Positions 55,164 through 56,943 of a DNA stretch of 64,000 bases are shown piece after piece. A program made the position numbers and the translations under genes. Positions within the stretch are counted from its first letter, which is position 1. Each line of letters begins with the position of its first letter. Source of the stretch: a virus (Duplodnaviria > Heunggongvirae > Uroviricota > Caudoviricetes). The DNA is taken from IMG/VR virus record IMGVR_UViG_2526164690_000025. The stretch is one strand, 5' to 3'. Below the pieces are notes generated by a model. It searched no databases and was not told the DNA's origin. It saw nothing but the letters and a program-made list of their open reading frames with translations.

Positions 55164-55235
55164 CAGTTACAGTGTCACTTTTAATGCTGGTGGAGTGCGC
55201 CCACCAGCATTTTTTTCGTCCAATGAGGAGGGCAT

Positions 55236-55742
55236 TTGAGTATTTTCAATAAACACGCACACCAGGAACGTCCGTATATCGTCATAGTTGATATTGATGG
55301 AACAATATCAGAGGCAACTGAAGACAGACTGCATTTGCTTCCGCCACCAGGTAAAGGTGCATTAACAAAGGACTGGAACGAGTTTAATCTCGCCTGTGAC
55401 ACCGATACTCCCATCACTCCAGTTATTGATATGGTGCGCCAGTTATTTAACGTTTACACGGTCTGGTTTGTAACCGGGCGCTGTGAGATCGCAAGGGATA
55501 AAACACGAGCCTGGCTGCGGAAGTACGTAACAAACGGGGCTGAGCCTTTGCTATCTATGCGTCCTGCCACCGATGACAGAAATGACGGCCCAGCAAAGAT
55601 TGATCTCCTTAAGAAAATTGGTCTAAGTAAAATCGCGTTCGCGCTGGAAGATAAGATTGACGTGGCGCGTGTTTTCAGGAGGCACGGCGTGCTTACGTTA
55701 ATGGTCAGGGAGTATGAAAATGCGCTTCTTCATCAACAATGA
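55236..55742 (+). CDS. HAD-superfamily phosphatase-like protein
   Basis: IVIVDIDGT motif I (DxDGT). Confidence 0.5.
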   Translation: MSIFNKHAHQERPYIVIVDIDGTISEATEDRLHLLPPPGKGALTKDWNEFNLACDTDTPITPVIDMVRQLFNVYTVWFVTGRCEIARDKTRAWLRKYVTNGAEPLLSMRPATDDRNDGPAKIDLLKKIGLSKIAFALEDKIDVARVFRRHGVLTLMVREYENALLHQQ

Positions 55743-55758
55743 TTGCTCTAATAAATAT
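55742..55758 (+). promoter_or_regulatory. C1-operator-like site overlapping stop codon
   Basis: ATTGCTCTAATAAATAT, 16/17. Confidence 0.55.
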
Positions 55759-55840
55759 TGATTTTTAAAATGGAGAAAGTGAAAATAAAAACATGCCGCA
55801 AGGCGCGGCATGTATCCAATCAATCACAGGAGCTGAAAAT

Positions 55841-55927
55841 ATGAACACGGCATTCAAAATCATTATGGCCGCGATCTATTTCTGGCTGTTCTCTATCACT
55901 TTTGGCGGCATCGTCGCACATGGGTAA
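55841..55927 (+). CDS. possible 28-aa hydrophobic peptide
   Basis: ATG with SD caggag; MNTAFKIIMAAIYFWLFSITFGGIVAHG; preceded by stem-loop 55792-55812. Confidence 0.35.
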   Translation: MNTAFKIIMAAIYFWLFSITFGGIVAHG

Positions 55928-55936
55928 GGGGGATGC

Positions 55937-56665
55937 ATGAAAGGCGAAGTGAAAGAGCGCGGCATGATTTTCAACGATGAGATGGTCCGGGCCATCCTCG
56001 AAGGAAGGAAAACGCAGACGCGGCGGATAATGAAAAATCAGCCTGCGGAAGTTGGTCCAGAAGCACCAGTGATGGTTAGAAAAATTGGTGCAGGTTTTCA
56101 GTGGTACGGGGCTGATGGTGTAAGCAGTGTTTTCAATTGCCCATTTGGTATCGTCGGCGATCGAATTTGGGTTCGTGAAACATGGGCGATATTAGGCAAT
56201 GAGGATGGTTGCAGTGTGGACTGGAACGACAACCTTTGTCGTGGCGATGAGAAGAACGCAGCAAGGATTTATCGGGCCAGTTGCGAGCAAAAACCTGGTG
56301 ATTACGGCTTATGGTCGATACCCGATGATGCCGACTGGAAACCTCACACTGTGAATGAAAAGTTTGATGGTGGGTGGCGTCCATCAATTCACATGCCGCG
56401 ATGGGCATCACGCATTCTGTTGGAAATTACCAACGTGCGCGTTGAACGGTTGAACGATATCAGCGAATGCGATGCAAGGGCTGAGGGCGTTCCGCCTGCT
56501 GGAAGTTTGCTTCCTGATCACCCGGGAACATTCCTTACTCCCAAGGGGGATTTCGCAATGGCCAAGGTTGCGTTCCAGCGCCTGTGGGAATCCATCTATG
56601 GTGAAGAAAGCTGGAACGCTAATCCCTGGGTGTGGGTAATCGAGTTTAAGCGCATTCAGGAATAA
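55937..56665 (+). CDS. ASCH-like (PUA-fold) domain protein
   Basis: N-terminal MVRAILEGRKTQTRR and GDRIWVRETW; C-terminal NPWVWVIEFKR. Confidence 0.5.
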   Translation: MKGEVKERGMIFNDEMVRAILEGRKTQTRRIMKNQPAEVGPEAPVMVRKIGAGFQWYGADGVSSVFNCPFGIVGDRIWVRETWAILGNEDGCSVDWNDNLCRGDEKNAARIYRASCEQKPGDYGLWSIPDDADWKPHTVNEKFDGGWRPSIHMPRWASRILLEITNVRVERLNDISECDARAEGVPPAGSLLPDHPGTFLTPKGDFAMAKVAFQRLWESIYGEESWNANPWVWVIEFKRIQE

Positions 56666-56943
56666 ACCGTGAGTATGCATCAAATCGTCAGTTTTTCAGG
56701 TGGACGAGCATCAGCCTGTCTCGTTCATCTGTTCGAATAGGTAGTGGCATGACAATCGTAAAAACCCATACCGGCACCGTGATCACCAAAGACGGTCCGC
56801 AGGTAAAAAACTGCACCAAACAGAGCGGATGTGGGTCGTCGGCAAAAATGAGTTTTACCACAAAGATACCGGACGCCGCCACTTTGCAGAAAATACGCGC
56901 CGTCGACTGCTGTTAGACACCATCAAGCCTATCGAGGTGAAGC

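Follow-up and report, generated by a model that had tools for sequence, protein, structure and literature searches.

Does the short interval between the genes pap and pmgT of P1-like phage-plasmids encode a protein? The question arose in a stretch of 64,000 nucleotides from a virus of the Caudoviricetes (IMG/VR record IMGVR_UViG_2526164690_000025), here called the window, where an ATG at 55841 opens a reading frame of 28 codons that is closed by the TAA at 55925-55927. We identify the window as a P1-like phage-plasmid; over positions 55200-56700 it shares 98% identity with phage P1 and 99-99.9% with many P1-like phage-plasmids of E. coli. P1 has long served as a model phage and is used for transduction and in Cre/lox work, and P1-like phage-plasmids often carry resistance genes in Enterobacteriaceae. 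In the P1 record AF234172 the homologous stretch holds, in this order, pmgS, pap, the C1 operator OpmgT, the predicted sigma-70 promoters P2pmgT and P1pmgT, and pmgT; the P7 record has the same annotation layout. Judged by its conservation, the small open reading frame (ORF) is a genuine, conserved gene whose product is a tiny, predicted single-helix membrane protein; the reference annotation of P1 has missed it. With a probability of roughly 0.7, we consider it a genuine gene that forms the first cistron of the C1-repressed Op88/OpmgT operon and whose product is a single-helix membrane peptide acting through its helix.

ORFs of this length are common, 95 of at least 20 residues being found in 5 kb, so that a size of 28 codons is unremarkable alone and only the comparative data raise the small ORF above chance. 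The selection acting within the P1 clade was analysed on 82 pap-containing loci from IMG/VR and GTDB and on a further set collected by DNA pattern; a search of genome contigs with Pap contributed only two loci. The start region of the ORF is carried by 194 locus entries from about 111 contigs, and 868 PLSDB records match the 199-bp region around it. When 83 sequences were compared by the Nei-Gojobori method, the ratio of non-synonymous to synonymous diversity (piN/piS) was 0.146 in the frame of the small ORF versus 2.5 and 2.2 in the two remaining sense frames, and 0.108 in the bona fide neighbour gene pmgS. The distinct variants of all fetched loci comprised 10 synonymous and 11 non-synonymous changes, where 5.9 synonymous ones were expected under the observed transition/transversion mix (simulation, P = 0.028). 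The peptide was 100% identical in 18 of 19 phage records, and the 28-codon ORF was intact in 190 of the 194 locus entries.

Diverged relatives were reached through Pap homologues of 58-78% identity, which led to contigs with the size and the synteny of P1 (ppp, pmgQ, pmgR, pmgS, pap). The sequence 3' of pap is largely different in these contigs, but the layout is kept in elements whose Pap is 70-78% identical: a C1 operator, a GC-rich hairpin of different sequence, CCAATCA(ATCA)C, GGAG, an ATG and a small ORF of 48-65 codons. In L094, L096 and L100 the small ORF encodes MNTAFKLAMAAFYFWIFCIAFNGLVKAAP... with 65 or 48 residues, and in L089, L090, L092, L093, L097, L101, L104 and L106 it encodes MQVLIKLAVTAFFVWLFT.AVTSFKPD... 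with 53 residues. The first 25 residues of the window peptide are identical to those of L094/L100 at 17 of 25 positions, at a nucleotide identity of 67%. In the comparison with L094, 15 of the 25 nucleotide differences fall on third codon positions, the proportions of synonymous (pS) and non-synonymous (pN) differences are 0.85 and 0.20, and the null expectation has a mean of 10 identical residues (P < 5e-5). Within the 53-residue clade the ratio of non-synonymous to synonymous substitution rates (dN/dS) ranged from 0.09 to 0.5 in the coding frame and, for most pairs, was close to 1 in the other frames. The profiles of the 53-residue and the 28/65-residue forms were aligned by hhalign from residue 1 over 27 columns with a probability of 93.9% (E = 1.5e-7). 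M1, K6, A11 and W15 are invariant across the family, which has only the N-terminal hydrophobic segment in common; the tails of about 28 or 40 residues are unrelated and are absent in the P1 clade. These comparisons indicate that the small ORF is under frame-specific purifying selection within and between clades, and it is very probably translated. An untranslated chance ORF in a 5' untranslated region would agree with the abundance of ORFs of this size and with the fact that the P1 reference annotators did not call it, but the frame-specific selection, the conserved Shine-Dalgarno sequence and start codon and the conserved hydrophobic features of the helix leave this explanation with hardly any weight.

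The sequences following the small ORF were then compared among P1-like elements, and homology was found to break recurrently just 3' of its stop codon. Elements of the P1/window type and of the P7 type have a common sequence through the start of the next gene, which in the window is a pmgT-like gene (55937-56665) that follows after a 9-nt spacer and whose Shine-Dalgarno sequence overlaps the stop of the small ORF. In about a quarter of the elements the sequence changes at 55931/2 to a type I hsdR gene in convergent orientation, and no plus-strand gene follows the small ORF, which is intact in all of these copies (about 45 locus entries). One further type switches at the stop codon itself, with TAG and then TTCGG. 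The block from pmgT to humD is known to vary among P1-like phage-plasmids (PMC9603915).

This arrangement bears on the idea that the small ORF is a cis-acting leader, of which only the act of translation matters, by coupling or by protection from Rho, while the peptide has no role. The ORF stands first in the operon, and in all clades the next gene follows closely, either after the 9-nt spacer or, in the relatives, with its start overlapping the stop of the small ORF (ATGA, GTGA or TGATG); in L091 the 5' untranslated region enters a winged-helix (wHTH) gene directly without a small ORF. However, such overlaps are the rule for all genes of these operons, and the pS and pN values given above show that the amino acids are conserved far more than the nucleotides. 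Since the ORF is intact in the hsdR-type copies, a role in translational coupling alone is argued against; in these elements it persists with no downstream plus-strand gene, and the features of a leader or attenuator were not found. We give little credence to the cis-acting explanation.

The break point could also mean that the 28 codons are an evolutionary stump, which lost its tail by recombination in the P1 clade, is inactive, and is kept by the youth of the clade and by feeding ribosomes to the next gene. V25 is the last conserved residue, and the P1-clade ORF stops three codons beyond it, 4 nt short of the breakpoint at 55931/2, at the edge of the known variable region; its stop codon overlaps the next Shine-Dalgarno sequence, and the non-synonymous variants cluster near its end at G22/G23/G28. 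Yet the helix, which is the sole part conserved throughout the family, is complete, the in-frame piN/piS within the P1 clade is 0.15, and the hsdR-type locus entries retain the intact ORF with nothing downstream to couple. An inactive stump is rather improbable on this evidence.

The helix of the peptide was predicted from its hydrophobicity and by modelling. The Kyte-Doolittle plot with a 19-residue span has its maximum of 2.10 at residues 7-25. AlphaFold, run on the family alignment with a 65-residue homologue, returned a helix at residues 3-31 with a predicted local distance difference test score (pLDDT) of 83-88 over the first 20 residues and a tail of low confidence. The peptide is predicted to be essentially one transmembrane helix of residues ~5-26. 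NCBIfam, Pfam, PHROGs and PADLOC contained nothing for the 28-, 53- and 65-residue forms, the sole match being phrog_27041 with E = 0.16. When 1.84 billion representative proteins were searched exhaustively with a profile, 11 matches were retrieved, all from the family itself, and a tblastn search of all phage records yielded copies of the P1 group only. Homology to a toxin or regulator family was not detected in the family libraries or by the profile search, and the suggestion of the first-pass annotation that the peptide may be a membrane-active toxin or regulator is a guess.

Holins and Sec signal peptides were also compared with the locus. A holin or antiholin is not indicated, as the neighbours are pap and the pmgT-like gene, the promoter is C1-controlled and not a Lpa-dependent late promoter, and the 28-residue form ends in ...IVAHG with no charged tail. 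The features of a Sec signal peptide were not found either: the P1-clade form is without a mature domain, the hydrophobic stretch of about 19 residues has the length of an anchor, and the conserved part is the N-terminal region while the tails are unrelated. In the 65-residue variant a possible VKA/AP site was read by eye only.

The features of the locus are collected in Table 1. The first-pass annotation had described a C1-operator-like site, a GC-rich stem-loop, an ATG with a good Shine-Dalgarno sequence at the head of 28 codons, and a single predicted transmembrane helix, and all of these were recovered, the operator being the annotated OpmgT/Op88 itself.

Table 1. Features of the pap-pmgT interval in the window
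Feature	Position	Strand	Basis
C1 repressor operator Op88/OpmgT, ATTGCTCTAATAAATAT	55742..55758	+	0 mismatches to consensus ATTGCTCTAATAAATTT; P1 annotation
Predicted sigma-70 promoter P2pmgT	-35 55743-48, -10 55766-71	+	position transferred from P1 annotation
Predicted sigma-70 promoter P1pmgT	-35 TTGATT 55758-63, -10 GAAAAT 55781-86	+	position transferred from P1 annotation
GC-rich hairpin ACATGCCGC-AAGGC-GCGGCATGT	55791..55813		terminator scan and folding
CA-rich linker CCAATCAATCAC	55816..55827	+	between hairpin and Shine-Dalgarno; conserved
Shine-Dalgarno AGGAG	55828..55832	+	8 nt before ATG; GGAG at same spacing in all clades
Small gene, 28 codons + TAA, MNTAFKIIMAAIYFWLFSITFGGIVAHG, single predicted transmembrane helix	55841..55927	+	sequence, comparative data
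AAGGGGG Shine-Dalgarno and ATG (55937) of next gene	55926..55939	+	sequence

The ORF had also been called unannotated. This is correct for the reference records of P1 and P7, where nothing is annotated between the promoters and pmgT, but not for the databases as a whole: PGAP predicts a 44-residue hypothetical protein from an ATG at 55793 (WP_001312275.1), the same interval is annotated "membrane protein" in SJ46, and one NCBI protein entry is the 28-residue form itself (P0008). The ATG at 55793 lies inside the hairpin and has no Shine-Dalgarno sequence, and the relatives have no ATG at its position. Natural variants carry an insertion of GG in the hairpin loop or a deletion of CAAT at 55817-20; these 2-nt and 4-nt indels displace the upstream ATG from the reading frame but do not affect the 28 codons. 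The 44-residue reading was rejected because of the indels, the position of its ATG in the hairpin and the absence of this ATG from the relatives. Because natural indels shift the ATG at 55793 out of frame, the start given by PGAP/RefSeq and in SJ46 is very probably wrong. A literature search found no mention of the peptide or of WP_001312275, and the region is not discussed in the RNA sequencing paper on P1vir.

The operator upstream of the small ORF is a 17-bp asymmetric site and overlaps the stop codon of pap. It is one of 11 C1-operator-like sites in the window, where 0.45 would be expected by chance, and it is retained in every diverged relative. The homologous site is annotated as the monovalent C1 operator OpmgT (former Op88) in AF234172 and as Op(hea) in P7. 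The promoters are predicted only, and a simple consensus promoter scan did not call the P1pmgT and P2pmgT sites. A TTGATT/TTGTTT-N17-nAnAAT pattern, read from the sequence, was found again in the diverged clades L089, L090 and L094. At 55771-55772 the window has TG, and nearly all of about 83 relatives compared have CA; the T at 55771 is exclusive to the window and the G at 55772 occurs in 5 sequences. The difference turns the -10 element of P2pmgT from the TAAAAC of P1 into TAAAAT and also creates an ATG; it is possibly a promoter-up change.

The hairpin has a stem of 9-10 bp and a folding energy of -15.3 kcal/mol. Across the clades it is located 4-7 nt after the predicted -10 element and 21-32 nt before the ATG, and in the relatives it follows the operator at 31-35 nt (core stem at about 33 nt in L094/L100). 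At least six unrelated hairpin sequences with energies of -10.9 to -23 kcal/mol occupy this position among the clades, and within one clade compensatory changes were observed in two base pairs. The structure and not the sequence is kept among relatives, as is expected of a stabilising hairpin. Since it sits at the 5' end of the predicted transcript in the clades, we favour the reading that it forms a stem-loop at the 5' terminus of the operon mRNA. A sense-strand terminator was rejected for the window because the plus strand has no T-run after the stem. The contig L091 is an exception: its hairpin overlaps the predicted -10 element (GAAAAT in the loop) and is followed by a plus-strand T-run; at 4489-4592 of this contig the hairpin resembles a sense-strand terminator for the pap operon and not a 5' mRNA hairpin.

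The linker between the hairpin and the Shine-Dalgarno sequence reads CCAATCA(ATCA)C in all clades, including L091 without the small ORF, and is conserved at the nucleotide level although the ORFs of the clades are only 45-67% identical. In the minimum free energy folds of most clades the linker and the Shine-Dalgarno sequence are unpaired. In the fold of the window the TCAC end of the linker is weakly paired (4 bp) with a GTGA upstream of the hairpin, which would lie outside any transcript starting at P1pmgT. Possible roles of the linker are those of a ribosome standby site, an enhancer or a binding site; CCAATCAATCAC was also considered as the target of a complementary RNA, but no complementary copy was found within the window.

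On the minus strand the stem (55813-55791) is followed by TTTTATTTTC and was reported as terminator-like by the consensus scan. Together with TTTTATTTT (55813-55782) it is the sole terminator-like site in 1.5 kb. This raises the possibility of a type I toxin-antitoxin-like pair, in which a membrane toxin would be controlled by an antisense RNA ending at this site. The peptide is small, hydrophobic and predicted to span the membrane, as would be expected of such a toxin, and in the hsdR-type elements the convergent hsdR transcript would read antisense across the ORF up to the terminator. But the consensus scan found no promoter-like site on the minus strand, the Shine-Dalgarno sequence is unpaired and not sequestered, and an antitoxin would be unneeded in lysogens, where C1 already shuts the promoter. 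Only P1-clade sequences have the T-run, which in them falls on the A-rich -10 region, whereas the other clades keep the hairpin without it. No Rfam family scored above threshold; a minus-strand GcvB match reached 20 bits, against a gathering score of 42, and is attributable to the hairpin plus the T-run. The antisense RNA was rejected as a candidate for want of an antisense promoter and of a conserved minus-strand T-run, and we regard the toxin-antitoxin explanation as very improbable. The hsdR gene itself, which about a quarter of P1-like elements possess, is oriented towards the small ORF and has no canonical terminator of its own (L061, 3560-3780), and its transcript would run antisense across the small ORF and probably stop at the hairpin.

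Several observations weigh against the small ORF as a functional membrane peptide gene. The selection signal of the P1 clade amounts to about 21 variants and is dominated by one common synonymous site (55918); taken alone, it is only suggestive. The identity between the window and the 53-residue clade is 6 of 25 residues, which is not significant by itself, and the P1-clade form is without the tail that is present in relatives. The first-pass annotation had taken loss of the ORF or disruption of its frame in related phages as the sign of a spurious gene. The 190 intact locus entries do not show it, but in the other 4 entries a rearrangement at 55898 truncates the ORF, rare frameshifted or fused forms occur (P0017, P0019, P0021, P0013 and P0057), and L091, the most distant relative, is without it; there the leader CAATCAATCA leads straight into the winged-helix gene that is the second cistron in other clades. 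The gene is thus dispensable in some lineages. In the laboratory the surrounding operon is not essential, and the downstream P1 genes were found non-essential by CRISPR interference (PMC10695390).

Weighed against the conservation in frame, within and between clades, these observations leave a translated membrane peptide as the preferred reading, and we infer from the layout how its gene would be used. In a lysogen, C1 bound to the operator that overlaps the predicted promoter would keep the gene silent. Upon infection or induction, transcription would start a few nucleotides before the hairpin or at its base, and the mRNA would carry a 5'-terminal stem-loop that may protect it from 5'-end-dependent decay. 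The unstructured CA-rich linker and the strong Shine-Dalgarno sequence would load ribosomes at the ATG at 55841 and not at 55793. The 28-residue peptide would insert into the inner membrane and act through its helix, perhaps, early in lytic growth, by binding an inner-membrane protein of the host or the phage and modulating it, and less likely by forming a pore. Because the conserved aromatic/small-residue pattern is combined with dispensable tails, a helix-helix modulator may be a slightly better fit than a pore-former; the evidence for this is weak, and direct membrane perturbation is the alternative. A more specific proposal, which is unlikely but not remote, is that the helix-only peptide is an active early-lytic effector, either an inhibitor of some inner-membrane protein of the host or a toxin-like disturber of the membrane, for example in host shutdown or superinfection exclusion. 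P1-like elements would then retain its gene as a fixed first cistron bordering their accessory-gene hotspot, and in hsdR variants it would also be silenced by the convergent hsdR transcript, running antisense as far as the minus-strand terminator.

The operator, the hairpin, the leader and the small gene form the fixed left edge of the pmgT-to-humD cargo hotspot. They provide an early expression slot with swapped cargo, which may be the pmgT-like gene, the P7-type set, type I restriction-modification genes or methyltransferases. The module is independent of pap, because some diverged contigs without pap (L100, 2834-3001; L101/L102, 1333-1501) carry the operator, the hairpin and the small ORF directly after pmgS.

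Traces of recombination were seen around the locus. About 280 IncF-type conjugative plasmids contain an 84-bp relic only of the small ORF (55848-55931), which is 98.8% identical, does not include the start codon and is flanked by an IS1 and by the 3' end of hsdR, for example at 4001-4084 of L006 (NZ_CP035517.1). The relic is what an IS1-moved type I restriction-modification cassette of P1 origin has left behind, and the "membrane protein, partial" entries of the databases derive from it. In P0009-P0013 and P0057 the stop codon TAA is replaced at a junction (GGG TAY...), and the frame of the small ORF continues into downstream fragments; one such fusion includes a complete DUF551 domain (103 residues), which would be membrane-anchored. 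These fusions resemble rare deletions beginning exactly at the end of the ORF. Downstream of the pmgT-like gene, at 56669-56740, the window contains the first ~23 codons only of a phosphoadenosine-phosphosulfate-reductase-family gene, MSMHQIVSFSGGRASACLVHLFE*. In other P1-like plasmids (L004) the gene is intact, and the homology of the window to it stops at 56737, which therefore is taken as a deletion or recombination junction inside the variable region.

The analysis adds a conserved gene to the reference gene list of P1 and corrects the start codon of the PGAP annotation. Among the known systems that resemble it are the small single-helix membrane proteins of enterobacteria that modulate larger membrane proteins, such as KdpF, AcrZ, MgtS, PmrR and CydX. 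Like these, the P1 peptide has about 30 residues and one transmembrane helix that would hold the function, and its helix is conserved while the tails vary; in contrast to them it is phage-encoded and repressor-controlled, its membrane location is predicted, and there is no sequence similarity. Type I toxins are represented by Ibs, ShoB, TisB and the Hok/Sok family. The likeness lies in a short, very hydrophobic peptide that is encoded on a mobile element and normally not expressed, but the P1 gene would be repressed by C1 at an operator and not by an antisense RNA, and its Shine-Dalgarno sequence is not sequestered.

In the lytic phage T4, Imm and Sp are early small membrane proteins that act in superinfection exclusion. 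The P1 peptide would resemble them as a small membrane protein produced early in lytic development, although there is no homology and Imm and Sp are larger; we know of no exclusion phenotype for this region of P1. The hairpin recalls the ompA-type 5'-terminal stem-loops that reportedly stabilise mRNAs of E. coli, as described by Emory, Bouvet and Belasco in 1992. Both have a GC-rich hairpin within a few nucleotides of the 5' end, which in P1 is predicted, followed by an unstructured leader and a Shine-Dalgarno sequence. They differ in that the P1 transcription start is predicted only and that the L091 hairpin overlaps the -10 element and has a sense-strand T-run. Within P1 itself, upfM (37 residues) and upfO (46 residues) are similarly tiny annotated ORFs in the variable region from pmgT to hot. 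The small ORF differs from them in being shorter and absent from the reference annotation, on the conserved side of the boundary, and in having comparative support; its predicted product belongs with an already known kind, the small phage membrane proteins.

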